15,444 nucleotides of DNA from a virus (Duplodnaviria; Heunggongvirae; Uroviricota; Caudoviricetes). The notes under the pieces were generated by a model that worked only from the letters and a program-made list of their open reading frames with translations, did not search any database and was not told where the DNA came from. A program made the position numbers and the translations under genes. Shown here one piece after another: positions 1-15,444 of this stretch. The first letter of the stretch is position 1. The number at the start of each line of letters is the position of its first letter. The DNA lies in the IMG/VR virus record IMGVR_UViG_2531839585_000009; one strand, written 5' to 3'.

Positions 1-1804
1 CACCGTGCCGCTCTGGTCGCCGTCAAAGTGCGCCCCGTTATCCACGATGGCCTCTTTTTCCGGTACATGCTGCACGGCGGTGATGGCATACGTGCCGTCG
101 TCGTTCTCACGGATACTCACGCAGCGGAACAGGCGCTGGCGCACGTCGGCAGCTTCAGCCCCCAACGCTGTATTCAGCAACGCCGTCAGGAACACGGCTC
201 ACTTTCACCTTCACGCCGTCGGTGACGGACTGAACCTCCACGCTGACCGGATCCCTCCGTCAACCAGGCTTATCAGCGTGGTCCGGAGATGGCAGCGTGA
301 TTTCACGGTCGAGCGTCAGCGTCCGGGTCTGGCTGTTCACCGCCAGCACGCGCCCCGGTGCTGATACCGGCATAGTCATCATCGCAGATTTCAATGACAT
401 CGCCCGGTACATGGCGAAGCCCTTCGCACCCACGCTGAATCCACGGTCTGCGTTCCAGCAGTTCGTTTTAATCAGCCACAGCCCGGCGCGGTGTGCCTGC
501 CCCCGGCTGGTACAGCCAAAAGCATCCATCTTCGTGACGTTACGACCGTAACGGGCAATGGCCTGCGTGTCCTCCACAAGCTCTGTCGCCGTCTCCCAGC
601 CGTTATTCGGGTCAATCCAGTTCACCTCAACGGCATTATGGCGGTCCTTCAGGGCGCTGAAGCTGTAGCGGAACGGCGCACCATCATCCGGCATCACCAC
701 ATTACTGCGGTTATAGGTCCACACCTTATCCGACGGTCGGTCCTGCACGAACGTCAGCGTCTGCCCGTTCCATACCGGCATACAGCGCATCGCGAGCAGA
801 AATCACTGAGCACATCCCACGCCTTACGCTGGTGGTCAGAGGCATTACAGGTGATGCGCGGCTCCGTGCCGCCAAACCGTCCGGCACGACTGGTCGCAGT
901 ACTGGCCGATAATACAGCGCCCATTTATCCACATCCCGCACCAAGACGTTTCCCCATGCCGTAGCGCGGATGGGTCAGCATATCCCACAGACACCAGGCC
1001 ATGTTGTTGCTGTATGCGGCTTAAACGTTCCGTCCCAGATACCGCTGTATTGCCGCGTCTGCGGGTTATAGTTCGACGGCACCTGCAGAATACGCCCGCG
1101 CAGATGATAATTACGGCTCACCTGCTGGCTGCCGAACTGCTCCGATCCACCTGACGCCGACCAGTGCCGTGTTCGGGTAGCACTGTTTCACATCGATATT
1201 TCGGTGTATGACGACCAGAGCGTTTTGTTCTGCAGCTGGTCTGTGGTGCTGTCCGGCGTCATTCTGCGCATCCGGATATTAAACGGGCGCGGCGGCAGGT
1301 TATCCACCACCACCGAGGCCAGATACTGGAGTGGTTTTGCCCTTAATGGTGATGTCTTTTTCCGTCACCCAGCCACCTTACGTGTATCTGAACCAGCAGG
1401 CGACTTCCGACGGATTCCGTCCCCCTTTGAGGTGGTTTCCACCAGTGCCTGCACACCGAAGGTAAAGCGCAGACGGTCGATGTTTGCCGACGTGATGGTC
1501 CGGGTAATCGGCGTGTCGTATTTCACTTCCGTACCCAGTACCGTCTCGGAACCTGATGATTCAAATCCCTCCGGCGGTGTCTGTTCCTGCTCACCTGCCC
1601 GGAACACCACCGTGACACCAGAGATGTTAGTATTCCCCTCACTGTCCAGCACCGGTGTACTGTTCAGCAGCACGCTTTTTAATCCATCCACCGGACCTTC
1701 AACCGGCCCTTCGCTGATGGCATCGATCACACTCAGCAACTGCGTGGACTTCAGGTTGTCCTTGCTTCGCGCGGGGTATGCCCCTTACTGCTGCCTTTAC
1801 CCAT
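1..1804 (-). pseudogene. J: Tail tip central fibre / host-specificity protein J (lambda gpJ family); 5' ~1.8 kb only, the gene continues past the window start; frame broken many times
   Basis: ATG at 1804 (GGAG about 12 nt upstream) opens MGKGSSKGHTPREA, the lambda gpJ N-terminus; frame is lost about 15 codons in (GCAAGGAC where GCA-AAG-GAC is expected). ORF 1365..1739 (SVIDAISEGPVEGPVDGLKSVLLNSTPVLD...RLRFTFGVQALVETTSKGD) and ORF 260..790 (NGQTLTFVQDRPSDK...VNWIDPNNGWETATELVEDTQAIARYGRNVTKMDAFG...RVLAVNSQTRTLTLDREITLPS) match gpJ almost residue for residue. No minus-strand ORF of 60 aa or more between 790 and 1365. Confidence 0.85.
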
Positions 1805-1820
1805 TCGTCATGCTCCATAA

Positions 1821-1847
1821 ACGATAAAACCGCCCGGAGGCGGTTTC
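1821..1847 (-). terminator. GC-rich hairpin followed by U-rich tract in the I-J intergenic region (terminator-like attenuator or mRNA processing/stability element)
   Basis: Minus-strand reading AAACCGCC-TCCG-GGCGGTTTT-ATCGTTT: 7-8 bp stem, 4-nt loop, then a U-rich run; lies in the 60-nt gap between the I stop (1865) and the J start (1804). Confidence 0.5.
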
Positions 1848-1864
1848 ACATAAAACATTTTGCA

Positions 1865-2504
1865 TCAGCGACCAATCACCACAACCTGACCACCATCCCC
1901 TTCGTCTGCCGTGCTGATCTCCTGAGAAACCACGCGTGACCCCACGCGCATTTCACCGTACAGAACGGCAGAACATTGCCCTGGGCAACCATGTTATCCA
2001 GTGAGGAGAAATAGGTGTTCTGTTTGCCGTTATCTGTACTGCTGCCGTGGCGTCCTGGCTTTCGGTGCCAGCATCTGCGCCACCCGCCCAGGATCATACT
2101 GGCCCCTGCCGCATACATGCCCGATACAGCCGCGGCACCCAGCCAGCCCACAGGGTTCCACCATGCCACCGCAATCACGCCGCCCCCAGCACCACCTGAA
2201 ACACACCGCCACTTTTAGCTCCCGCCAGACGCGGCACGATTGGATCACGGCACCATTTGCCAGCGGCTCATTAAGACGGGCAGACAATTCGGTTTCACCT
2301 GCATCACGCCCGGCAATGCGTACCTGTACCAGCCGTCGCTCAGTTTCTGACGAAACGCCGGGATCTGCATGGCCAGCGCCCGGATGGCTTCGGCCCCCGT
2401 TTTCACACGAAGGTCGATGCGGCGGCCAAATCGTTGCAAATCCCCGTAAAGGCAGATGCGTGCCATCCCGGTGACGCCAGAGGGAGTGTGTGCGTCGCTG
2501 CCAT
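1865..2504 (-). pseudogene. I: Tail tip assembly protein I (lambda gpI family); frame broken about 5-6 times
   Basis: ATG at 2504 gives MAATHT-PS..; the next frame gives GMARICLYGDLQRFGRRIDLRVKTGAEAIRALA..FRQKLSDGWY (ORF 2245..2466); further pieces QVRIAGRD...GAVI and VAQMLAPKARTPR (in ORF 2030..2872), TDNGKQNTYFSSLDNMVAQGNVLP (ORF 1876..2178) and ISTADEGDGGQVVVIGR-stop sit in different frames. All match lambda gpI. Confidence 0.8.
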
Positions 2505-3144
2505 TTGTCGGTATACCTCTCTCGTTTACTCAGTTGTTCAGGAATATGGTGCAGCAGCTCACCGTCGCCGCAGTAAATGGCGGCATGATTCGGCACCGAT
2601 GAACCAAAACAGCACAGCAGCACATCGCCCGGTTGTGCTGATGACAACGCCACCTGATACAGCCCTGTGGCCTCCAGATTATCCAGATAGAGATTCTGAC
2701 CGTGACGCCACCAGTCATCCCCGCGATGAAAATCCGGCATCTCAATCCCCGCCAGATGATAAGCATCCCGGAACAGCGTGTAACAGTCCGTCACCCCGTG
2801 CTCAAAGCGCCGCCCGGTGAGATGCGGCACACAGCGGAACTTATGAATCTCCCCCGGCAGACCAGCCACCACGGCAAATCACTCTGCACCTGCAGCCGCC
2901 GGTCAGCCTCACTCAGCCAGGGCAGACCACCGGGGTGGCTGTGGACCAGCGCCACAATCTCACCCTGCATCTCTGCCTGCAGCCAGTCCTCCGGCGACAT
3001 CCGGAAATACGCCTCCGGCTCACCGGAGATATTCACGCAGGGAAAATATCTTTCCCCCTCCGGCGTTCTCACCACGAAGCCGCACGATTCCGCTGGCGCA
3101 CATCGCCGGGCGTGCGCCAGAATCGCTGATTCTGTCTGTGTCAT
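2403..3144 (-). pseudogene. K: Tail tip assembly protein K (lambda gpK family; N-terminal JAMM/MPN domain, C-terminal NlpC/P60-like domain); at least 2 frameshifts
   Basis: ATG at 3144: MTQTESAILAHARRCAPAESCGFVVRTPEGERYFPCVNISGEPEAYFRMSPEDWLQAEMQGEIVALVHSHPGGLPWLSEADRRLQVQSDLPWWLVCRG (JAMM motif HSHPGG...SEAD present). Frame is lost at about 2850 (CGGGGGAGATTCAT, one base short); the continuation EIHKFRCVPHLTGRRFEHGVTDCYTLFRDAY...DKWQRRTHSLWRHR is in ORF 2030..2872; a second break at about 2530 (GGG where GGGG is needed) precedes the C-terminus ...ASAFTGI.NDL.AASTFV-stop at 2403. The 3' ~100 nt overlaps the start of I in another frame. Confidence 0.85.
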
Positions 3145-3148
3145 GGGA

Positions 3149-3819
3149 TTACTGCGAAAGTTTGTTAATGGAAAGGAAGCCGCCAAAGTTGCCGACGTTA
3201 TTGCGAAACTTACAGCCCTCAGGCATTTGCTGCATTTATCCTTCGTGATATCGGACGTGGCTGGTCATATTCATCGCGACAGCCGGACCGATAACCGCAC
3301 TCTCACCGCGATAGGTCCAGGTGCAGGTGTTGGCCAGCATGATCGCCCGGAAAAACAGCCCTCCGTTTCCGTCGGGTGGAAGACAAAGAGGCACTACCGC
3401 CTCAGTTCGCTCACTGCTCATGCGCCAGCGGCTGATCACCTCCTGCTCCGGATCGGCTCTGTTTCCGTTGACGAAGTTCACCGCATCCAGAAAACGGGCG
3501 TAAACCTTACGCCGACCACCGTTCCGCCGACCAGACTCTGCATCTTCCGCCATCCCGGTGACCATCCGTCAGGTTAGAACCGTCAGTGTCGGACGGGCAG
3601 CACTGCCCTTCCGTTCAGTTCAAATCCCGTCCCCTGAATGGGGTATGCCTGATACTGCCGCCCCTGCCAGGTGACCGGCTCACCTTTTTCGTTCTGCTCA
3701 TTACAGAAAAAATAACGTTCACCACCGACCTCTGTCAGATCGATTTCCCAGAGCACCACCTGGGCTGACTGAGTAAGGCGTGTCGTCTCATGATGTGTTT
3801 CCTGTGGAATATCCTGCAT
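3149..3819 (-). pseudogene. L: Tail tip protein L (lambda gpL family, Fe-S cluster-binding cysteine motif); at least 3 frameshifts
   Basis: ATG at 3819: MQDIPQETHHETTRLTQSAQVVLWEIDLTEVGGERYFFCNEQNEKGEPVTWQGRQYQAYPIQGTGFELNG (ORF 3583..3819); then MVTGMAEDA...RKVYARFLDAVNFVNGN..ADPEQEVISRW...IMLANTCTWTYRG (ORF 3236..3565, itself drifting in and out of frame); the C-terminus DKCSKCL / EGCKFRNNVGNFGGFLSINKLSQ-stop (TAA 3149..3151) is split across two frames. Confidence 0.85.
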
Positions 3820-3828
3820 CAGGGCCTC

Positions 3829-4156
3829 CTATGCCACGACCTGTTCAAAATCTGCCGTTATGGTTACCCACAGCGCCCCCACGCTTGCCGACCATTTACG
3901 ACAAACCACCCTGATCGGCTTCCAGTCATAAGGTGGCGTCCACTGAAATGCCGGACGCCACCGTGCCGTTCCAGAAAGGCTTTCAAAGATGGGTGTCACA
4001 TTTACGAACACGTATCGTCACGCTGTAAGTCGACAACTGGTTATTCAGTCCCGCCGCACGACGCTGTTCATAACCATCGCCCAGCTTCACTGTCACCACT
4101 TTCGGCTCTGATACCACATTCATATCCGGGCGCACTTTCCAGTGAAACGTCTCCAT
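3829..4156 (-). pseudogene. M: Tail tip protein M (lambda gpM family); 2-3 frameshifts
   Basis: ATG at 4156 overlaps the H stop (TAATG). Frame 1 METFHWKVRPDMNVVSEPKVVTVKLGDGYEQRRAAGLNNQLSTYSVTIRV then stop; a second frame gives LKAFLERHGGV; a third gives AFQWTPPYDWKPIRVVCRKWSASVGALWVTITADFEQVVA-stop (ORF 3829..4011). All match lambda gpM; the span is 328 nt, not a multiple of 3. Confidence 0.8.
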
Positions 4157-7100
4157 TACCGATATGCTCCACTTAACCGACCACCATCACGGGCCTGCTG
4201 TTGCATAAAGTCCGCTGCCGCTTTTTTCCCAAGGTCATAAACCACCTTCAGGGCAGCCGGACCTATCTGCCCGTTCGTGCCATCGTTATTGATCTCGATG
4301 TTGTACTGCGGGGAAACATCGCCATACCTGACCCCAATATCCGCCACAACCCCCAGCTTACCGTCAGCACCACGACGCAGTGGCAGAATGGCTTCAGGTC
4401 CAGCTTCCCCCATCACACCCGCGCCTTTTGCAAAAGCAAAAAACGTCGGACGGTTAACCACCGTGCCACTGTAGCGACTCAAATCAGCCGACTGATAAAC
4501 ACCGCCATCAGCATTGGCTACAAAATCAAAAGGCAGCGCGGAAGCAATACCTTTTACCGCTTTCATTAAAGCTATCTGAGCCATGATTCTGGACATATCT
4601 GACAGCACAGAAGAGGTGAAGGATTTGAAATTGAGTTTGCCTGTAGTACAGAATGTCGCCAGCCAGTCACTCATGCTACTGAACGCAGACGTGAACAACT
4701 GTTCCACTGTCCCGGCTGTGTTATCCGCTTTCTCAGTGACATTCTGGAGTGCACGCAGGACTCCGTTTTTCCAGTTACCCTGCACAACTTCAAGCTGTTG
4801 CCAATAACGGCGATTCTCATTCAGTTGTCGGTTCAGGCTCTCCGTCAGCGCCTGCTCGGCCTTTCTGTAGTCATCCGTGTTATATGTCCCTTTCTGCTCA
4901 CTATCCCGCCTCAACTGCTCCAGCTGTTGCTGGTATTTCTGGCGAAGACTCAGTTGTACCTGATATCGCTGTCGCTGCTGATCACCCATACCCACCGTGG
5001 CGATATCCAGGTCATGTTGCTGACGCTGAGCGCGCTCTTCTTCAGCCAGTTGACTGGTCAGCTGAATTGTTTTTTTCTTCAGATCGTTGAGTGCCGTCTG
5101 TTTCTGAAGCTCCTGCTGTTTTACATCCAGCAGCGTCAGTGCCTGAATCAGTTCATCTTTACGGGCCAGCACACTCTTTTCATCTGCCGTCAGTTTTTTC
5201 CCGTCCAGATCGCTGATGCGCTGCTGCAGAGCCAGAAGCTGTTTATGCGCTTCTGTCATCCTTCGTGGCAATGCCTGCTGACTGTCTGCAGCAGCAATCT
5301 GTCCTTCCACCTGTGCCTGTTGCTGACTGTACTGCAGCAATAACCGGGTGGCCTCATCATTACGGGTTTCGCGTGTTTTTTTCTTACCGGATGCCAGGGC
5401 TTTCTCGTAACGTTCATTTTCACGTTGTATCGCCGCATCCCTGACAGCCTGATCGGCGTACTGCATGGCATTAATACGCGCAATTTCACGCTGATGTCGT
5501 GCTGCTTCCGTTTCATTCATCCGGTTCAGTGCAGCATTTTCAGCATTACGGCGTTTCTGTTGCTCCTGATAATTCCGCTCTGCCTGCTCTTTTGCATCCT
5601 GCAAATCCTTCTGGCGTTTTTTCTCCTGAAGCTCGTTAAGACGCTGCTGATCGTACTCAACCTGAGAAGATGATGCCGTCCAGGGGAGTCTTTTCGCCCG
5701 CGACACTTTCTCCTGTAAAGCGGCAATCTGTTCATCCAGCGAGTCTTCACGACCAATATTCATGGCCGCATCCCAGAAACGACTCCACAAATCAGACAGA
5801 TACTTCAGCGTACTGCCAAGCGCATTGAGGTTATTATCAATATCCGCAGTACGCCGACCGGTTTCCTCTGCCAGTGCAGACATGGCTATCCGTGCAGCAT
5901 CACTGGACCGCCCCTGCTCCCCAAGGACGCGTATCTGCTCAAGCTGAGTGGCAGTAAGAAAATGCAGCTCATTGTCCAGAGCCTTCGCGGCATTTACAGG
6001 ATCATCCTTCAGCCGCTTAAACTGATTTATGGTATCGCTGACCGACTGGCCAACCGATCGCTCCATCTGTGCGGCAACTCTCGCCACCATACCGATATCG
6101 TTTCCACGAAATGCACCACTCCCCACCACCTGAGCCAGCGCACCGGCTGCAGCATGTTGCGTGATACCATTCCCGGAAATAGCACGACTGAGCGTCCACA
6201 GCTGCCCGGCAGTGACTCCGGCATAATGCCCCGTCAGCGACAGCTGGCGGTTAAATTCTTCCCCCTCCTTCTGACCGTCATACCAGGCTTTACCCAGACC
6301 ATAGACAGCCGCGGCAATACCGCCAATAACCCCGCCAAGCATCATGCCTTTCGGTGACATCAATGTGTCTATCCACCCGGCACGGTTAGCCAGCGTTATT
6401 CCGGATCCCCTCAGCGCACCTAAATTGCCGCGGGCCAGTTCACCTATCAGAACGCCTATCTCCTGACGGGCCGCTGCACTTTTCAGACCCAGCGAATGCG
6501 TTGCTTTTCCTGCCTGCTCCATTTTGCGGATATACACTTCTGCAGCACTGCTTACCCCCAGCTGGGCAGCCTTAGCACGAAGCAACTCAGAAGAAGAAAG
6601 ATTCTGGCGGGTTGCCTGCTCTTTAAGCTGACGGATAAACGCCACTTTCTGTCGGGTAGCCTCTTCCTCAGCCTGTGTAAGAACACGGGTTTTCGCCGTA
6701 ACCTCAGAAATCAGCGCCAGATAATCCTGCTGACCAATCCCGCCACTGTTTCTGGCCTGTCGGATCTGCTGCTGAATACGCTGTAATTCCTGCAGCCCCG
6801 CACTGGCCTGTTTCACACTGTCAATCTGACGATAAAACGCAGCAGCCGCTTTATCCTGAGCCTCTGCCAGAGCCATGGCCTGCGCCTGTTCATCGCGCAT
6901 TTTCTGGCTCAGCGCCTCCATGCGCTGGCGGGTTTTCTCCACCTCGCGGGCCATGCGTTCATGAGCCTGTGCGTTCTTCTCCACCGTCTGCGCATGGACG
7001 GATGCGGCTGTTGCAGCCGAAGAAGCTGCCTGCGTTGTCTGCCGGGCGGCCTGAGTCTGACGCTCCATAAAACGCTGCATACGGGCAGAAGACCGTTCTG

Positions 7101-7206
7101 CATCGCTGGCTGCACCATTCAGAAGGTTTTTGATACGGGGAATTTCATTTTTAAACTCTGCCGCATCAATCCCCAAATCAATGACCAGGTTGGCTATCTG
7201 GTCCAT
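4156..7206 (-). CDS. H: Tail tape measure protein (lambda gpH family), intact, about 1016 aa
   Basis: Uninterrupted ORF. Likely start is ATG 7206 (MDQIANLVIDLGIDAAEF, compare lambda H MAEPVGDLVVDLSLDAARF) with GGAGGTG 6 nt upstream; the ORF track's upstream TTG at 7236 is less likely. Central Q/A/R/E-rich coiled-coil region; C-terminus INNDGTNGQIGPAALKVVYDLGKKAAADFMQQQARDGGRLSGAYR matches the lambda H C-terminus closely. Confidence 0.9.
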   Translation of the reverse strand: MDQIANLVIDLGIDAAEFKNEIPRIKNLLNGAASDAERSSARMQRFMERQTQAARQTTQAASSAATAASVHAQTVEKNAQAHERMAREVEKTRQRMEALSQKMRDEQAQAMALAEAQDKAAAAFYRQIDSVKQASAGLQELQRIQQQIRQARNSGGIGQQDYLALISEVTAKTRVLTQAEEEATRQKVAFIRQLKEQATRQNLSSSELLRAKAAQLGVSSAAEVYIRKMEQAGKATHSLGLKSAAARQEIGVLIGELARGNLGALRGSGITLANRAGWIDTLMSPKGMMLGGVIGGIAAAVYGLGKAWYDGQKEGEEFNRQLSLTGHYAGVTAGQLWTLSRAISGNGITQHAAAGALAQVVGSGAFRGNDIGMVARVAAQMERSVGQSVSDTINQFKRLKDDPVNAAKALDNELHFLTATQLEQIRVLGEQGRSSDAARIAMSALAEETGRRTADIDNNLNALGSTLKYLSDLWSRFWDAAMNIGREDSLDEQIAALQEKVSRAKRLPWTASSSQVEYDQQRLNELQEKKRQKDLQDAKEQAERNYQEQQKRRNAENAALNRMNETEAARHQREIARINAMQYADQAVRDAAIQRENERYEKALASGKKKTRETRNDEATRLLLQYSQQQAQVEGQIAAADSQQALPRRMTEAHKQLLALQQRISDLDGKKLTADEKSVLARKDELIQALTLLDVKQQELQKQTALNDLKKKTIQLTSQLAEEERAQRQQHDLDIATVGMGDQQRQRYQVQLSLRQKYQQQLEQLRRDSEQKGTYNTDDYRKAEQALTESLNRQLNENRRYWQQLEVVQGNWKNGVLRALQNVTEKADNTAGTVEQLFTSAFSSMSDWLATFCTTGKLNFKSFTSSVLSDMSRIMAQIALMKAVKGIASALPFDFVANADGGVYQSADLSRYSGTVVNRPTFFAFAKGAGVMGEAGPEAILPLRRGADGKLGVVADIGVRYGDVSPQYNIEINNDGTNGQIGPAALKVVYDLGKKAAADFMQQQARDGGRLSGAYR

Positions 7207-7905
7207 AACGCACACCTCCGGAAATACCTTCTCCAAGATGCATCAGTTCTTCGTCCGTTCGCTCCGGTATCCCGTTCTCTTCCGGTAAAAGGCTGAAATC
7301 AGCCACCGCAGCATCACTGCTGCCGGACACCATTCTCACGATCAATGCCTTCAGCGAGGCAAACTGCGCATCCATCCACACATCACTGAAGCTCTGCATC
7401 CGGAAATAATCGCCCCACTCACCAAGCTCAGTGGCCGACATTTCCGACAGCATCCGCCGCCAGTCTGCCCGCCGGAACTCCCGGGCAAGCCGCATGACAA
7501 ACTGCATTTCCCGCGTCAGGACTTTTCCGGCGTCAGCACCTCATGCTCCAAATCCCCGGCATTCTCAATGGCTCCCATACCGCTCAGCGACAGAACCATC
7601 TCCGCCCCCGCTCCCAGGGCATCATACGACCATGTTGTAATAACGGATGCGCAAAGCGTCTCAACATCCTGAGACTGTTCCGCATTCCACAGTGAGCGGG
7701 AAACCAGCCAGGCATTGATATCCATCCCCATCCGCAGAAAAGCAATCTGTCGTTCAGCCTCCGGCAGTTCTCCCTCTTCGGCATCAAACTTTGCCGTTCG
7801 CTGCTGAACAAACGCCAGATATTCAATTCTCTGCAGCCCGGACAGCTCACTGAGCACCACGGACTGTTTTTCATAATTAAACGTGCCCTGTTTCAGAAAC
7901 ATCAT
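7178..7905 (-). CDS. GT: Tail assembly chaperone G-T fusion, predicted to be made by programmed -1 ribosomal frameshifting near the 3' end of G
   Basis: The -1 frame relative to G opens at a TGA only about 10 codons before the G stop and continues for about 115 codons (..AGKVLTREMQFVMRLAREF...GPDSQPGH-stop at 7178); the candidate shift site GGAAAAG (7521..7527) sits 2 codons before the G stop, the same arrangement as lambda G/T. No independent strong RBS for T. Confidence 0.6.
7516..7905 (-). CDS. G: Tail assembly chaperone G (lambda gpG family)
   Basis: ATG-ATG at 7905/7902 preceded by GGTGGAG; MMFLKQGTFNYEKQSVVLSELSGLQRIEYLA resembles lambda gpG (MFLK...LSELSALQRIEHLA); ends ...LTPEKS-stop (TGA 7516..7518); position between V and H. 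Confidence 0.85.
   Translation of the reverse strand: MMFLKQGTFNYEKQSVVLSELSGLQRIEYLAFVQQRTAKFDAEEGELPEAERQIAFLRMGMDINAWLVSRSLWNAEQSQDVETLCASVITTWSYDALGAGAEMVLSLSGMGAIENAGDLEHEVLTPEKS
7521..7527 (-). other. Candidate -1 frameshift slippery heptamer GGAAAAG (one-base variant of the lambda G GGA AAG site)
   Basis: Zero-frame codons CCG GAA AAG TCC TGA; -1 frame GCC GGA AAA GTC...; A-site slip AAG to AAA is canonical, P-site re-pairing GAA to GGA is imperfect. Confidence 0.45.
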
Positions 7906-7918
7906 GTTCTCCACCTGC

Positions 7919-7942
7919 AAAAAAGCCCCGGATAACCGGGGC
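7919..7942 (-). terminator. Intrinsic (rho-independent) terminator immediately downstream of major tail protein gene V
   Basis: Minus-strand reading GCCCCGG-TTAT-CCGGGGC followed by TTTTTT: perfect 7-bp GC-rich stem, 4-nt loop, 6-U tract; lies in the 57-nt gap between the V stop (7963) and the G start (7905). Confidence 0.75.
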
Positions 7943-7962
7943 AAATGATGAGTATCGTCCTG

Positions 7963-8702
7963 TTAACCTGCGGCGCTGACAGCCACCGCAGCCACGGCCA
8001 CAAAATCGCCGTCAGAAGTCATGCCCACAATGCTGACACTGCCCTGCTTCACGCCTTTCACCGTGGCCACAAGCCCGTTCAGGGTCACCGTGGCAGTCTG
8101 TGGATCTGTCGAATGCACACTGATCGCTTTGTCACTGGCTCCGTCAGGTTTTACTGTAAAGGTCAGCGTGGTGGTTGCTCCCACTTTTACACTGGCAGAT
8201 GCCGGTGCCACCGTCAGCCCGGTAACGCCCACGGTTTCAGTGCCTTCCTCTGCCAGATACGGACGCCCCACACCGCTGATTTTCACGGTGCGGGTCATCA
8301 CGTCTTTTGAGGCAATGGTTTTACCCAGTGAACTCAGCCAGCCACGGAAAACATCAACAGTACCGTTGGGATATTTGATACGAAACGCGCAGACTTCACC
8401 GGAGTCGAACAACTGAACCAGTTTTTTCTGCCCGCTGTCACCCGGACGCCAGGCCAGCGTCGCCGAAGTATCACCGACGGATTTCTGCCCCTGGGTTGTC
8501 GTTTTCCAGTCTGCATCTTCATCATCGAGATAAGTGTCATCTTCTGCATCAGCGGTCATTTCGCCAGGTTGCAGATCCTTCACCATCGCAAGACGCACCA
8601 GTCAGTGTCCGAAAAGGGTTCGCAAACGCATCGCCTTGCCGGTTACATCCAGAACGTCGTTCCCGCACCTTTCGTTTTTGCCAGTGGATTTGGTGTGGTC
8701 AT
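7963..8702 (-). pseudogene. V: Major tail tube protein V (lambda gpV family) with C-terminal Ig-like (Big_2-type) domain; the first ~100 nt carry about 4 single-base deletions, the remaining 211 codons are intact
   Basis: ATG 8702 with AAGGAGGTG 5 nt upstream: MTTPNPLAKTKGAGTTFWM then in-frame TAA; the pieces TGK, DAFANPF, PFSDTDW and RLAMVKDLQPGEMTADAEDDTYLDDEDADW lie in alternating frames and together reconstruct the lambda gpV N-terminus. ORF 7963..8598 continues ...YPNGTVDVFRGWLSSLGK...RTVKISGVGRP... and ends with an Ig-like segment (LTVAPASASVKVGATTTLTFTVKPDGASDKAISVHSTDPQTATVT...). Confidence 0.85.
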
Positions 8703-8712
8703 TACCACCTCC

Positions 8713-9126
8713 TTAATTCGTGTACGTGATCTGGTACGTGATTTCCGCCATCGCCCAGGTGGCCATCTCATTATCACGTTGATAGTTAAAACCGAGTGGG
8801 ATCAGGGTGTCGATGAGTCCGGAAAGTGCCGGTATATCATTCAGGGCCGGGAAAATGGTGCTCTCCATCCACATATCCAGCTCTGAATCCGGTGCCTGTG
8901 CCCGGATGAAGACAGCAATATGCAGAACAGCCTGCCAGTCATCTTCATCCGTCATTTTTCCGGTGTACTGAGCATCACTCAGCCACACTGCCACGGCAGG
9001 CAGTTCCTGCGCATCAACAAATGCCGGAAGCCCGTCAAAAAACGTGGCGCTGTCTCCACACTGTTCCCGAAGGCGTGCTAGTACGGCCTGGCGGATTTGT
9101 GTATGTCGGTTCATCGGGTCAGCCAT
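8713..9126 (-). CDS. U: Tail terminator protein U (lambda gpU family)
   Basis: Intact ORF; ...ATFFDGLPAFVDAQELPAVAVWLSDAQYTGK...WQAVLHIAVFIRAQAPDSELDMWMESTIFPALNDIPALSGLIDTL...YQITYTN aligns with lambda gpU (ATFFDGRPAVFDEADFPAVAVYLTGAEYTGE...PDSELDAWMESRIYPVMSDIPALSDLITSM...YVITYEM). Start could be ATG 9126 or ATG 9114. Confidence 0.85.
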   Translation of the reverse strand: MADPMNRHTQIRQAVLARLREQCGDSATFFDGLPAFVDAQELPAVAVWLSDAQYTGKMTDEDDWQAVLHIAVFIRAQAPDSELDMWMESTIFPALNDIPALSGLIDTLIPLGFNYQRDNEMATWAMAEITYQITYTN

Positions 9127-9689
9127 AACCTCAGTTGTTGTTTCAGTGCATACCCCAGCTGTTTCGGCATTTCCGCAGCAATAATGCGGTCGCGGGCATC
9201 TTCAAATGCTTGTGTCAGCGGTCCGGACAGCGGGACTTTCACCACATCAATGGGGTAACGATTTTTGCCATCAATACGCCGCATCACATGCCAGCGACCA
9301 TTCGCCAGTTGCTGAATAAACGCATCCCGGAAAAGATATTTACCCACCTTCAGCACACTGCCACGGTACTGCAGTTTTCCACCACGCCGGGCCAGTCTGA
9401 CCCGGGCTGTCCCCAGCTTAATAGCGGGCAGATTGCCCCGGTTAACGCGGATCCTGGCCGTCATTTTTCCTGACGGACTGGCTTTAAACACCCGGACACG
9501 CTGACGTACCAGTTTCAGGGGGATCCCTTTCACCTGGTTATCTCCCGCAACGGTATTCCCGGCAACCTGCCGGGTGGCGACCGAGACCGCTTTCTGTGCC
9601 ACACGGTTTATCGCCCATGCGCTGGCCTGTGGCACCATACGGGTATCAAGGCTGTTCAGATTACGGATGGCATTCTCAAGCCCCTTCAT
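9111..9689 (-). CDS. Z: Tail completion protein Z (lambda gpZ-like by position and size, 192 aa)
   Basis: Intact 192-aa ORF, ATG 9689 preceded by AGAGGTG; basic, Arg-rich; sits between the FII-like gene and U exactly as lambda Z does and overlaps U by 16 nt. Identity is inferred mainly from synteny and length. Confidence 0.7.
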   Translation of the reverse strand: MKGLENAIRNLNSLDTRMVPQASAWAINRVAQKAVSVATRQVAGNTVAGDNQVKGIPLKLVRQRVRVFKASPSGKMTARIRVNRGNLPAIKLGTARVRLARRGGKLQYRGSVLKVGKYLFRDAFIQQLANGRWHVMRRIDGKNRYPIDVVKVPLSGPLTQAFEDARDRIIAAEMPKQLGYALKQQLRLWLTR

Positions 9690-9700
9690 CCCACACCTCT

Positions 9701-9976
9701 TTACTCAATAAAGATCATTGGCTTACCGTTAAAGCGTTCATGCCGTGTGACCGTCCATTGTTGTCCGTCATAAACAACGCGATCCCCGCGCCGTGGGCGG
9801 TATCCCGAAGAAAACACCACCAGAGATACCGCAGGTCCGGACAGAGCATTCAGCTCTGCCAGTGTTTCTCCCGGGATCACAGTCATATCGGCATCATTAA
9901 TCGAGGCTGTCTTTCCCATCTTTCTGACCGTGATCGCATCCATACGCGCTGCCAGCCGGGAAAAGGGATCAGACAT
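9701..9976 (-). CDS. Head-tail joining protein (lambda gpFII-like)
   Basis: Intact 91-aa ORF; PFSRLAARMDAITVRKMGKTASI...VSLVVFSSGYRPRRGDRVVYDGQQWTVTRHE parallels lambda FII (...AIARADETIRGYMGTSATI...PSLFVRTDEVRQLRRGDTLTIGEENFWVDRV); overlaps the upstream gene by 8 nt. Confidence 0.6.
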   Translation of the reverse strand: MSDPFSRLAARMDAITVRKMGKTASINDADMTVIPGETLAELNALSGPAVSLVVFSSGYRPRRGDRVVYDGQQWTVTRHERFNGKPMIFIE

Positions 9977-10292
9977 TGAGTTTTACCGGCACTTCTTCTG
10001 CACTGGTTCCGGCATCTGCCCAGACAACCCCGACCAGCGGATCAGAGCCGCTGTTAGTCAGCTGAACTTTTCCGGACTTCAGATAAACCTTCTTACCCGT
10101 TTTCATGTCATCCGTTTTCAGCTTAGGCAGCATAAACACACCTTCGGTCATGCCGTCGCCTGTTTCACCCTGTGGAATATCGGTCAGCGCCACCGCAAAA
10201 ACATCACCCACCTGCACCAGATCTCCGCTGCTGATGGCTGCACTGGCAACAATCGCCACCGTTTTTCCTTCTTCTACAAAATTCTTTGCCAT
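9969..10292 (-). CDS. DUF2190-like small phage head protein (possible decoration/cement protein)
   Basis: Start most likely ATG 10292 (MAKNFVEEGKTVAIVASAAISSGDLVQVGDVFAVALTDIPQGETGDGMTEGVFMLPK...KVYLKSGKVQLT..) with GGAGA 6 nt upstream; the ORF-track extension to 10337 would run through the terminator hairpin. Family assignment is from memory of the motif pattern, not a search. Confidence 0.5.
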   Translation of the reverse strand: MAKNFVEEGKTVAIVASAAISSGDLVQVGDVFAVALTDIPQGETGDGMTEGVFMLPKLKTDDMKTGKKVYLKSGKVQLTNSGSDPLVGVVWADAGTSAEEVPVKLNV

Positions 10293-10305
10293 AACTGTCT
10301 CCGCA

Positions 10306-10324
10306 CAGCCCCGTTCAGGGGCTG
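10306..10324 (-). other. Second stem-loop abutting the Shine-Dalgarno sequence of the DUF2190-like gene
   Basis: Plus-strand CAGCCCC-GTTCA-GGGGCTG (7-bp perfect stem); on the minus strand it ends 3 nt before the GGAGA RBS; no U-tract follows. Confidence 0.4.
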
Positions 10325-10335
10325 ATTTCAGGTAC

Positions 10336-10355
10336 AAAAAAAGCCCTTACGGGCC
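10336..10355 (-). terminator. Intrinsic terminator immediately downstream of the protease/capsid gene
   Basis: Minus-strand reading GGCCC-GTAA-GGGC followed by TTTTTTT: GC stem with GNRA-type tetraloop and a 7-U tract, 23 nt after the capsid stop codon (10379..10381). Confidence 0.7.
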
Positions 10356-10378
10356 ATCAGAGTTGTTGTCTGCGACGT

Positions 10379-12334
10379 TTACGCCGTACATTTCACCAGA
10401 CCGCGGTGATCAACTGGCGCGACACCGGCGTCAATACGCACTTTCGTTGTCACGCCATCCACACTGAAGCCCTCCATCTGATCAATATATGGCGTATCCA
10501 CACCGTTGAGATAAGCCACTTCAATCGTATCGGAGCCTTTTGACGCAGCCAGGTAGAAGGTGGTCAGGCTGTTATCATCAAGACGAGGCTCTGCAATAAC
10601 GGTCGCAAAATCTTTCACCGGGTTAATAATACCGGCGTTAATGTCAGCCCCCTTGACACTTGAGGAGCGAATGACCTGGTTAGCAACAGACTCCATCGCC
10701 GTCGGTACCAGTACGAACGCAGGACGAATATTCAGATGACGCTCCCCCTCTTTCTGAACGCGCATCAACTGGCGGGCTTTATCCAGCGATGCCACGTCCA
10801 TTGCAGCGCTCTCCAGTACGTTTGCATGTTTCGCTTTATCGAACAGACTTACATTATCTGTGGAGATTTTCGGGTTAGACGTCAGAATGGCATAAACCAG
10901 ATCGGCAATAGTGGATTTCGCCGCACGGCCCAGCTTCATCGGGACATCGGTCAGCATATTCAGATCATCATTGATAATGGCCTGACGGGTGATACTGAAC
11001 AGCTCGCCATAGGTCGCCAGTGCAATAGTGGCCTGTTTATCTCCGGTGGTGACGTATTTATATTCCGCCCCTTCACGCACCTGACGCAGAGCACTGAAGC
11101 CCCCCATACCCACACGATGGGCAATTTTAAAATCAGACAACTGACCTTTCCGCGTCCACTGTTCATAGGTTTCAGGGGCATCTTCCCAGCCCTGCAGAAT
11201 GGCTTTGTTCGCAACATCCAGCAGAATATTACCGAAGTCAGACGTACTGTGTGTGAACGCCGCACCGACCATCTGCATCGGGTTATAACTGGAAACCCCA
11301 ATACCCCGTTCAGTCAGTGACATACGGGCATATTCACGCAGGGTCATCCCGTTGTAGACATTATCACGTTCGGTTTTTTCAAATCCGGCACGCGCCATCA
11401 GCGCCTGGCGGATCCCGTCCCCCACAAAATTACCGTTACCGGCATAAATATGAGCCGGGGTATTTTTATTGGATGGCGTGGACTCGCGCCCCATCTCGTT
11501 CAACAGCTTTTCGCGGGCCTGCTCCAGCGAACATTCAGGATCGGCAAGACACTGAGCCTGCAGCGTCTGATAACGCCCGCCAAACATGGCAAACAGATCA
11601 TTAATACCGTTTACACGCGCTTTTTGCTCTGCCAGTACCTGCGCACGGATACTGTTTTCATCCACCACGGGTGCTGCTGCCTGCACTGGCGTCCGGGAAG
11701 CTGCAGGTTCATTATCCTGTACGCGTGGAGCACTGTTGCGTGGCGGAGTAATCATGTTTCGAATGGATTCCGGCATCTTTTTAAATTCCTCTGTACGTTT
11801 TGACTGAATACATGCCATTGCCTTAACGGCTGGCGTCACCTGATCAGCAAATCCCTGTGCCAGACATTCGGCACCGGACATCCAGGTCTCATCCGCCAGC
11901 ATGGCAGCAATTTCATCGGTGGTTTTCCCGGTTTTCTGTGCATAAGCGGGTAACAGAACCGCCTCAACTTATCGAGCAGGTCGGCATAGGTGCGCATGTC
12001 CTCCGCATCACCGCCCGTAAAGCCAAATGGTTTATGAATCATCATGAAGGTGTTTTCCGGCATAATGACCGGTTTCCCACCATCGCAATGACCGACGCCA
12101 TTGAGCCGCCACACCGTCGACATAAACGGTAATGGACGCACCATGTGTTTTCAGCGCATTAAAAATGGCGATGCCTTCAAAGACATCGCCACCCGGTGAA
12201 TTGATATGGAGATTAATGTGGGTGATATCGCCCAGTGCATTCAGATCACTGATAAACTGCTTCGCTGTAACCCCCCAGAAACCAATCTCGTCATAAATAT
12301 AAATATCCGCGTCACTCTGGTGACCAGCCTGCAT
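10379..12334 (-). pseudogene. Fused prohead protease (ClpP / S14-like) - linker - major capsid protein (HK97-fold); protease part broken by at least 3 single-base deletions, capsid part (507 codons, 10379..11902) intact
   Basis: Protease pieces: DIYIYDEIGFWGV...INSPGGDVFEGIAIFNALKTHGASITVYVDGVAA (ORF 12032..12439), then SMASVIAM in the third frame (catalytic Ser context), then GKPVIMPENTFMMIHKPFGFTGGDAEDMRTYADLLDKL (ORF 11836..12144; MIHxP His motif), then the capsid frame from EAVLLPAYAQKTGKTTDEIAAMLADETW onward. Putative start ATG 12334 (weak RBS, uncertain). Confidence 0.8.
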
Positions 12335-12380
12335 CCTGAACCAGGAATTATTCTTCGGACTGGTCGTCGGTGTACTGCGG

Positions 12381-13852
12381 CTACTGTCGTTTCGTTGCGG
12401 CACTGCTGCCTCCTTTATCACTGGCCGGATCGGTATCAAATACTAGGTCCAGCTTGCGGTTTTCATCAATTTCGGCCTTGCGCCGACGTTTGACATCATC
12501 CGGATTACGACCACCTGCACGTACCCAGTCTGATTCTGTCGCCGCTCCACCACGAATCTGGATTTTCCAGGCCTCAGCCTCCTTAACAGGATCAATCCAC
12601 GGCATCACCGGTCCGGAATACACCGCGGTATACAGTGAAGAACGGTCAAGATCGCGGGGTAGCCTGATAACACCGGATGCCACAGCCTGTTTCAGCCAGG
12701 CACGATACATCGGGCGGGTGACGGCACCAATAAACCAGTCCTGCAGGATCAGGTAGCCATCAGTGGATTCAACCAGCTCCTGACGCTGGGCGCTGTAAGT
12801 GCCGTTATAGTTGCGCGCTGTACTGGAAAAACTCAGACGACTGCCCGCCGCCACGGCACGCAACTGACCATTACGAAAAGTTTCAAGGTTAGGATTGGGG
12901 CGATCCGACTTCACCATTCCGATTTCTTCGCCGGGTTTCAGATCGTCGTAAATAATGCCTGGCTGAATGGTAAGCTCGCGTTCCTTATCCTTGCTGCCAT
13001 TACCATCCGTTTCATAGCTCTGTCCGTCGCCTTTGCGGATGTACATCCCCAGAGCAGCGGCGACCCTTGCTGCAGTCAGCTCAGAATCTTCATACTCTTT
13101 CAGGGCGCTGAGGCGGATCAGCACACCGGACAATAAAGACGTCCCGCGCATCTGGTGCAGACGGCGAACAAATTTAAGATGCAGCATTCGCTCTGCATCC
13201 ACTTCTTTGGTTTCCATCTGCCGTCCGGATACAGGACGACTTTTATACACCAGATATTTTTCGGGACGCCCCCAGTCATCAACAAACACGCCCTGATTCA
13301 GCCTGTTGCTCTCATCACTGGTCATGGGAATAAAGTCCGGCTCGAGCGCCTCCAGCCAGAAATGAACACCGGCAGAAGGCGTCAGGCTGTTTATGCGCCC
13401 GGAAACCATCTGGGCAAACACCTCACCATCGCGCAGCCAGGTACGCAGCATCAGACGTTCCAGCATCGGACGGGTAAACTGCCCGGTGACTCCGGCTGAC
13501 AGACCATTCACTCCATCGGGTCGATCTCCGCTGCCAGATCACGGGCAATGGCCCCATTGCGTAATACCGGATGTGGCTCGACAATAATCCCGTTTTTCCC
13601 CACCACCCGTTCTTCCAGCTTGTCAAATACACCAATAACCAGATCGTGGTTGTTATCAAGGTAACGGGCCTGCTCACGTAACGACACGGCCCCGTACTGG
13701 CTTAGCTGGTCGGCAGTTCGGTTCTCCCGTCGGGCTTTGTGTGTCCGCGTCGTTTTTACGGCTTCATAAGCCTGGATCACCGCACGGGAACGCAGCCTTG
13801 CCGCTTTCCATCCAGGTGAAAAAACGCCAATCACATCATCAAGAATTGCCAT
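12381..13852 (-). pseudogene. Portal protein (lambda-type portal family); one frameshift near 13510
   Basis: ATG 13852 overlaps the W stop (TGATG), GAGG about 8 nt upstream: MAILDDVIGVFSPGWKAARLRSRAVIQAYEAVKTTRTHKARRENRTADQLSQYGAVSLREQARYLDNNHDLVIGVFDKLEERVVGKNG... runs to a stop at 13508; the remaining 376 codons (ORF 12381..13511) continue in another frame. Total span 1472 nt, not a multiple of 3. Placement between W and the protease/capsid gene and the size (about 490 aa) fit a portal. Confidence 0.8.
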
Positions 13853-14064
13853 CAGAACCTCGCCAGCCGGTACCCGGGATGCCCCCGTCGTCGTGTAATC
13901 AGAGCCGCAAGGCGGCGCTCCCACTCCTGCCGTCCCTGTCGGATCTCAGATAAGTTTTCCATTGTCATCTGCTGACCATTAAAGGTGACGGATTTTCCGT
14001 CCAGCACCGCCATTTCAGCTTCCGTATAACGCTGAATCATGGCTTCGATATCATTCTGGTTCAT
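13852..14064 (-). CDS. W: Head-tail joining protein W-like (lambda gpW family)
   Basis: Small intact ORF between terminase and portal; ...LDGKSVTFNGQQMTMENLSEIRQGRQEWERRLAAL..RRRG resembles lambda gpW (...[50 protein letters not shown]). GGAGG lies 6 nt before the second ATG (14064), so that is the more likely start than 14070. Confidence 0.7.
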   Translation of the reverse strand: MNQNDIEAMIQRYTEAEMAVLDGKSVTFNGQQMTMENLSEIRQGRQEWERRLAALITRRRGHPGYRLARF

Positions 14065-15444
14065 AACCATCCTCCGGAAGTCAGCCAGGGGTTAACATCG
14101 TCAGTTACTGTTTTCTTCCGTTTTTGTTTTTTAACAGGCGTGGATACCGGTTCCGGTGAGGGTGACGGTTCGGTACTGTCCGGGACACACTCCAGCCAGG
14201 TTTCCCGGCTCGCCCACTCCGGTGCATCCGGCCAGCGGATCTTTTCGTATCCATGCAGAATGACCAGAGCCTCGGCATACACCATCAGGTCAAAAGCTTC
14301 GTTGGCACCGCGACCCGGCTTACTCCATTTCCCGTCACTGCTCCGCTCTTCATACGTCAGTTCGTCGTAAAACCAGCTCCCCAGCCAGTCAGGGAAATGC
14401 ACATAGCCGGGACCTGGCGAGTCACGCCATAACGCGTTATTCACCCGTCTTTCAGGGCATCCGTCTGAAGAAGCCAGAGCGGCACATCACCTGCGGCCTG
14501 CGCCCGTCGGCCCGTTCGTCCGGTGTTATCAGGGAATGTACGGGTGATCAGTTTTGCGCGCCGGATGCTGTCGCCCTTAAACAGGTAAATACGTTTACCA
14601 AGGCCATCACGACGGCAACGACGCCAGAATTTATAGGCATTATCAGTGACCCCGTCTTCACCGCCGGAGTCCACCGCCATTGCCATCAGTCGCATTTGTT
14701 GAGAAGGATCGGAGGCCAGCGGCCAGCTTTTATGAAAAACATCCGTCAGCAGGACATCCCAGTCTTCCGGATAGCTGGCCGGATCAATTCGCTGGCTCTC
14801 CCCGTCGCTGTCACCGCGCAATGACTGCGTGATGTTGTAACGATCAATAATCCAGCGTTCGCCACGGCTGCCATAGCCCGTTACCTGAACCACAAAACGG
14901 CGATGACGTCCCGCCTGCACATCCACTGTCGCCACAAGGAAATTAACGCCATCCGGCACACTGCGGGAAGGAACTGGCTCTGCCCGCTGCTCAAGCAATT
15001 CACTTTTTCGTTGCTCCATGCTGGCACGAGGAAGATAAGGCAATCCCCAGTCGGTGTTGATAACCGCCCTGAGTGTTTCTTCGCTTCCTGTCGCTTCATA
15101 CTCCTGTTCTGCAGTCAGTAATTTGTAAACCAGTTGCGCCCAGGTCTGATACGCAGCAGCTGGCCCTTCCATCCAGAAACTGGCGATACGGGAGCGGCGC
15201 GGTTCACCGGAAACGTTGCCGTTACGATCAATGACCTGCCCTTCACGCAACCAGACTCCTGCACTATTGAGCTCACGCTTTTTCTCCGCAGTGATAATGC
15301 CGCTGCAGTGCGGGCAAAGTAGATACGCCGCCTCACTGGCTTTGTAACCGGCTCATTTAAACCGTCTGGTCTGTTTCCTCCGGCTCTACAAAAATAATGT
15401 CCATCATTTTTAATGGACACTATCGTATGAAACACCGGACCTGG
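14061..15444 (-). pseudogene. A: Terminase large subunit (lambda gpA / Terminase_GpA family), C-terminal ~460 codons; 5' end lies beyond the window end; at least 2 frameshifts
   Basis: Three consecutive frames: 15444 to about 15365; about 15365 to 14441 (..LCPHCSGIITAEKK...FLVATVDVQAGRHRRFVVQVTGYGSRGERWIIDRYNI...MAMAVDSGGEDGV..., compare lambda gpA ACPHCGEEQ / YLTAGIDSQLDRYEMRVWGWGPGEESWLIDRQII / ICWDTGGIDP); 14444 to 14061 (..GPGYVHFPDW...ANEAFDLMVYAEALV, compare lambda PGAVHFPNN...RNEALDCFVYALAAL). The 14441 junction reads GACGGGTGAAT where one extra G would restore ..KD.VNNALW. Confidence 0.85.

Follow-up and report, generated by a model that had tools for sequence, protein, structure and literature searches.

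The four single-base deletions that interrupt the tail tube gene V near its 5' end are very probably, as judged from sequence comparison, a draft-assembly consensus artefact of mixed, near-identical prophage haplotypes rather than a biological feature. The window, meaning the whole 15,444-nucleotide stretch that was analysed, is the entire contig APZI01000578.1 (15,444 bp) of the draft assembly GCA_000356865.2 of E. coli p0305293.13. The GenBank contig was identical to the window at every base and contained only A, C, G and T, with no ambiguity codes, so the deletions belong to the public record and were not made during preparation of the window. Stripping of ambiguity codes during that preparation was ruled out, because the GenBank contig had the same length and sequence. 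The END282xx protein accessions carry the organism name Escherichia coli p0305293.13, and the contig number (578) indicates a fragmented draft of at least 578 contigs. In PMC4309559, P0305293.1 is entered as a cholera-like ETEC isolate from Bangladesh (2011), with IGS/GSCID as its sequencing centre. A study from that centre in which several ETEC colonies were taken from each patient used the Illumina HiSeq 2000 at >200x and Celera Assembler, giving 36-687 contigs per genome (PMC4462620). The naming and the sequencing centre provide strong but circumstantial evidence that isolate.13 is among those genomes; no literature match was found for the accessions APZI or GCA_000356865.

Gene V and its repaired product

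To locate V, we combined three-frame translation with inspection of the raw sequence. The gene starts with the ATG at 8702 and ends with the stop at 7963, on the minus strand like the window's other genes. The first V-like ORF (ATG 8702-8700) comprises 19 codons and ends at a TAA at 8645-8643. Read across the frames of the minus strand, the N-terminus runs MTTPNPLAKTKGAGTTFWM up to this stop, followed by TGK, DAFANPF, SDTDW and RLAMVKDL, where the long V frame picks up again and stays open to 7963. The translation thus bears out the preliminary description, which held that the N-terminus could be rebuilt only through frame switches.

Alignment with three intact relatives revealed four 1-nt deletions, as that description had proposed, at plus-strand junctions 8644/8643, 8636/8635, 8613/8612 and 8598/8597, all within 47 nt of the window (Table 1). 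Loss of the base at the first junction creates the in-frame TAA. At the third, loss of a G or A joined TTT to T and produced an apparent TTTT run; since the relatives read TTTGT or TTTAT, the suggestion that a run of five T had lost one base was wrong, and no homopolymer was shortened. The damage to V consists of the four missing bases only, and the alignment to relatives showed no further indel in the rest of V, nor downstream as far as 5287. Three of the four polymorphisms underlying the deletions are synonymous (Tyr20, Leu31 and Leu37) and one is Asn/Lys23.

Restoring one base per junction gave a V ORF of 744 nt encoding 247 aa. The repaired protein shared 246 of 247 residues with the tail protein annotated in E. 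coli strain 120899 and contained Pfam PF16461 (Phage_TTP_12) and a C-terminal Big_2 domain. It aligned from end to end with known structures of the lambda tail tube protein (PDB 6p3e, E 7e-87; domains 2k4q and 2l04). The length, identity, Pfam domains and structure matches of the repaired ORF indicate that V is correctly named. The domain content of the repaired ORF and the gene order of its neighbourhood (Z-U-V-G-T-H) were those of a gpV-type gene, and only the uninterrupted frame was absent from the sequence as deposited. The tail tube gene of the prophage itself is almost certainly intact.

Several features were noted beside V. Directly after the V stop, at 7917-7942 on the minus strand, there is a GC-rich hairpin and then a run of T (CCCCGGTTATCCGGGGCTTTTTT); the equivalent site in phage mEp460 is annotated as a rho-independent terminator. 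The ORFs of the tail-assembly chaperones G and T (7178-7944, minus strand) are in the lambda G/GT arrangement, with G ending in CCGGAAAAGTCCTGA; the canonical lambda slippery heptamer GGGAAAG was not found in 7100-7960.

Table 1. Features of the window, with positions, strand and comparison with relatives
Feature	Position	Strand	Details
Gene V, lambda gpV-type major tail tube protein	7963..8702	-	740 nt vs 744 nt in intact relatives
Deletion junction 1	8643..8644	-	Relatives TA(T/C)ACC; Tyr20, synonymous; panel C 82, T 43
Deletion junction 2	8635..8636	-	Relatives AA(C/G)GG; Asn/Lys23; panel G 90, C 35
Deletion junction 3	8612..8613	-	Relatives TTT(G/A)TCG; Leu31, synonymous; panel A 86, G 39
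Deletion junction 4	8597..8598	-	Relatives TGG(T/C)TG; Leu37, synonymous; panel C 122, T 3
Remnant ORF, 207 aa, annotated END28250.1 'bacterial Ig-like domain family protein'	7963..8586	-	Gene callers' annotation
C/T polymorphic site 2 nt upstream of V ATG	8704 (reference position 6948)	-	Window T; deleted in AQBZ01000033.1
About 36 deletion events in L, K, I, J tail genes	140..2860	-	Partly shared, partly discordant with p0305293.5
Densest cluster, about 25 deletion events in M/L tail genes	3210..3625	-	Sibling AQBZ01000033.1 has ordinary bases at seven shared-span events
2-nt and 1-nt deletion, tape-measure gene	4313..4334	-	Total 3 nt
Three 1-nt deletions, tape-measure gene	5262..5287	-	Total 3 nt; exactly one natural haplotype pair's differences (cost 0)
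Seven deletion events, terminase, portal, protease/capsid genes	11967..14446	-	Comparison with panel

Missing bases and natural variation

All four gaps in V fell on alignment columns where the intact relatives vary (T/C, C/G, G/A and T/C). We scanned viral contigs with the four positions set as degenerate and obtained at least 120 loci; with relatives retrieved earlier added, the set with identical flanks came to 124. Among the matches listed for these loci, the haplotypes were CGAC (77), TCGC (31), TGAC (8), CGGC (4), TCGT (3) and two singletons. Two of the natural types (L006-type, n = 49; L001-type, n = 3) differed from each other, within the first 201 nt of V, at precisely the four deleted positions, and each agreed with the window at the remaining 197. 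The L001 type includes the closest relative, ETEC strain 120899. For a given haplotype pair, the chance of such a coincidence for four random positions is about 1 in 6.6 × 10^7. Both repaired V proteins, with the contig's own C-terminus, were found as exact matches in public data (394 and 256 contigs). The errors thus sit where haplotypes differ, as in a collapsed repeat, with an exact two-haplotype match for V and for 5262-5287. That the deleted bases lie on haplotype differences supports the preliminary description in preferring a technical problem or a 'repeated segment' to neutral decay.

The sequence as written was then sought elsewhere. No copy of the deleted V string occurred in 5,426 complete E. 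coli genomes (best match 99.2%), and full-length V matches, present in >1,800 complete E. coli genomes, were each four bases longer. The exact string had no match in GTDB species representatives and none in metagenome contigs. A sequence missing from finished genomes and from the other collections is again what a collapsed repeat would leave.

To assess the whole contig, the window and about 125 relatives were projected onto the intact reference L004, and expected values were obtained from 2000 randomisations. The window carried 77 deletion events removing 92 nt, 65 of them single-base and 12 removing 2-4 nt including invariant neighbours. No insertions were present relative to L004 and the approximately 125 relatives, and only 9 bases were private to the window in this comparison, several of these being alignment noise adjoining deletions. 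Such one-directional errors, with few of the substitutions that accompany divergence, match a collapsed repeat. The deleted sites were polymorphic far more often than random ones: of the 77 events, 74 lay on panel-polymorphic sites (19.4 expected; maximum 32 in 2000 randomisations), and 68 lay on sites with MAF >= 0.05 (11.2 expected). The enrichment was already visible with five relatives only (49 of 69 events vs 3.7 expected). Among the single-base deletions, 56 affected the third position of a codon, 8 the first and 1 the second.

The events fell into the segments 140-2860, 3210-3625, 4313-4334, 5262-5287, 8597-8644 and 11967-14446, and the V cluster contained the only events in 5288-11966. 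The density of deletions that had been called exceptional is therefore exceptional within V; within the window it is not, given 77 events and denser clusters at 3210-3625 and 140-1420. The V cluster is a minor part of a pattern that extends over the contig and is not peculiar to this locus. No haplotype pair in the panel reproduced the pattern of the dense clusters at 3210-3625, 793-1017 and 1329-1418 exactly, so more than two copies, or haplotypes outside the panel, must be assumed for these.

Ordinary random sequencing error or low coverage, such as homopolymer miscalls in a poor-quality patch, would agree with the clustering of the lesions and with the one junction that resembles a short T run, but it is highly improbable. 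Single-base deletions occurred at a run length of 1 in 44 of 65 cases, of 2 in 15 and of >=3 in 6; at none of the four V sites do both alleles lie in a run, and the intact relatives do not have TTTTT at the third junction. Illumina indel errors are rare, and the stated platform was Illumina at >200x. Random errors would neither choose polymorphic sites nor recur in sibling assemblies. The local read-quality or coverage problem that had been suspected around the V 5' end is contradicted by these same observations and by the contig-wide extent of the events.

The deletions also affected the reading of other genes. In the tape-measure gene, each group of deletions sums to 3 nt, so the ORF is still open; that both groups do so is probably chance, at about 1 in 9. 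At 1016 aa, vs 1018 aa in relatives, the resulting ORF passes as intact in annotation despite its incorrect sequence. A 244-aa gene was called on the plus strand at 2843-3577 (L008 11868-12602), within the broken L/K tail-gene region. It had no Pfam match and is almost certainly a spurious call enabled by the broken real genes.

Sibling and related draft assemblies

The same 207-aa V remnant was present in at least four sibling p0305293 assemblies (at least four protein accessions). The deposited sequence is in this sense repeated outside the window, but the siblings are not independent confirmation of it, because they have the same genome content and pipeline and disagree with the window at neighbouring polymorphic sites. 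Half of the ten frameshift-generated protein fragments were found only in isolate.13 and the others in 2-4 contigs; the ClpP fragment was 97 aa in isolate.7 vs 100 aa. The assembly AQBZ01000033.1 carried the same four V deletions plus a fifth at the next polymorphic site (window 8704), and had ordinary bases at 14 events present only in the window. In the M/L genes, its bases formed a single unmixed haplotype (T,C,T,T,T,T,C) where other relatives had C,T,C,C,C,C,A; precisely these seven differences were deleted in the window.

The contig AQCA01000097.1 of p0305293.5 overlapped the window over 2581 nt, with 35 events in the window, 39 in the sibling and 23 shared; the 12 and 16 private events amount to 28 differences in 2.6 kb. 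In total, this sibling contig had 47 deletion events and 0 insertions, with 44 events on polymorphic sites. Assemblies of the same clone therefore disagree at affected sites, as expected of collapsed repeats, while the four V deletions themselves are shared.

These data bear on the possibility of a genuine pseudogene, in which a defective prophage lost V by four real deletions through neutral decay in the p0305293 lineage. E. coli often carries defective lambdoid prophages, and both the annotation of the remnant in at least four siblings and the same four deletions in AQBZ01000033.1 would agree with such a history. Decay should, however, bring substitutions and insertions, and the window shows 92 deleted nt, 0 inserted nt and about 9 private substitutions. 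Real deletions would have no reason to pick sites that are polymorphic in other phages (74 of 77) or third codon positions (56 of 65). Decay would also have to account for the 28 frameshift differences between isolates of the same patient, and no other collection that was searched contained the V string. The lesions were neither random, nor accompanied by substitutions and insertions, nor the same in clonal isolates, and a decaying pseudogene was rejected as very improbable.

The same signature was observed in other drafts. A contig of E. coli 2747800 from the same centre (AQEA01000103.1) had 25 events and 0 insertions, with 20 events at common polymorphic sites; together with p0305293.5, it makes the problem look project-wide rather than confined to one isolate. 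The IMG draft record IMGVR_UViG_2531839126_000015 (reference 12896-15727) showed 28 small deletion events, 26 of them on polymorphic sites, and this deletion-only signature places the artefact inside the IMG/VR viral catalogue as well.

Three further sequences were considered as instances of the same artefact and rejected. In L132, a 2024 assembly, only 3 of 12 deletion events were at or adjoining common polymorphic sites and 14 nt were inserted; in L005 and L121, the small indels did not track polymorphic sites and insertions were also present. These indels look like a different kind of error. In L005 (NZ_CP135244.1, 'complete genome'), the ClpP-protease/capsid fusion gene at locus 3984-4953 is annotated as frameshifted, with six small deletions off the common polymorphic sites and insertions relative to the reference, plausibly long-read indel noise.

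Probable origin and comparison with known systems

The reads of p0305293.13 would have come from two or more lambdoid prophage haplotypes of almost the same sequence, most likely separate prophage copies of one genome that were collapsed into a single 15.4-kb contig. At the positions where these differ, neither allele may have reached a majority in the multi-alignment, so that the consensus would emit nothing and a SNP would become a 1-nt deletion; possibly the two alleles were put in separate gapped columns, each of which was then called as a gap. At the V 5' end, the mixture would be of two natural types with exactly four differing sites, TCGT (that of ETEC strain 120899) and CGAC. The reads are predicted to show mixed T/C, C/G, G/A and T/C, phased as TCGT and CGAC, at about twice the single-copy depth or more and without gapped reads. 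The base-dropping step presumably took place inside Celera Assembler.

Some observations speak against an artefact. Not all differences between candidate haplotypes were deleted (4 of 11 were kept in reference 11690-12187), the densest clusters match no single pair of panel haplotypes, and the recurrence of the V deletions in at least four sibling assemblies is what a real lineage mutation would also give. Real deletions caused by a mismatch-targeting mutation, for example if mismatches in heteroduplex DNA from gene conversion between two prophage copies were excised and left unreplaced, with 1 nt lost per SNP, nevertheless appear most improbable; if such excision were true, the disagreement among siblings would represent ongoing events within the patient.

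As the source of the mixture, paralogous prophage copies are more likely than a mixed culture, because several colonies were affected in the same prophage and multiple copies of the module are usual. The number of places per E. coli genome where the tail module occurs had a median of 3 and reached 12 in strain 120899. The same artefact could instead have come from mixed strains or induced phage variants, or from ambiguity codes stripped before submission. Written as ambiguity codes, the four lost positions would be exactly Y, S, R and Y, and the high fragmentation (contig number 578) fits a mixed sample too. Against this, several independently picked sibling colonies were affected in the same prophage, which genome content explains more easily than repeated contamination; the twelve 2-4-nt events including invariant neighbours point to an alignment-level consensus effect, not to the stripping of single characters; and several module copies per genome are the norm. 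We consider these other sources improbable. In the closest closed relative, ETEC strain 120899 (NZ_CP025916.1; L001 1-1440), the terminase is truncated by an IS66-family element and the tail genes are intact; with its terminase truncated, that prophage copy is defective for packaging.

A consensus artefact of this kind carries no biological weight, and its worth lies in a quality-control signature and in database hygiene. Deletion-only consensus errors at positions where prophage copies differ appear to run through a whole family of ETEC drafts from 2013, and truncated 'proteins' are now in public databases (e.g., END28250.1, ENG52091.1, ENG65672.1 and ENG68215.1). Through such errors, pseudogenes and defective prophages would be overcounted, and both the gene families of a pangenome and the variation within a patient would appear larger than they are. 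The combination of deletions only, sites polymorphic in relatives and mostly third codon positions offers a cheap test for the artefact that needs no reads.

Among known systems, the phage cdtI/mEp460-type lambdoid prophages share 97-99% nucleotide identity with the window over V and its neighbours; their V is uninterrupted at 744 nt, whereas that of the window has 740 nt. The repaired ORF resembles lambda gpV over its full length, with the same domain order and the same Z-U-V-G-T-H gene order. Unlike lambda gpV, the window's V as deposited has four interruptions within the first 105 nt, and the protein is otherwise ordinary.

Programmed ribosomal frameshifting, as in lambda G/GT, is similar in that the frame changes within the tail gene cluster. 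Recoding sites of this type are conserved in relatives, whereas the window's relatives are all in frame; four shifts within 47 nt are without precedent, and there is no shared slippery motif. Programmed frameshifting or recoding at V was therefore rejected, since all relatives examined have a continuous 744-nt ORF.

Consensus at variant sites has been treated before: in Levy et al. (2007), Celera Assembler was changed from a column-by-column consensus to one that groups reads by allele (PMC1964779). Our literature search returned only general background and no paper on a SNP-to-deletion outcome for Illumina data with Celera Assembler. The closest known counterpart is the collapsed-repeat consensus error, in which near-copies are merged, errors appear where the copies differ and the consensus corresponds to no real molecule. 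The window fits this description, and differs from the usual case in that a base is lost at the SNP, rather than an arbitrary allele or an ambiguity code being written.
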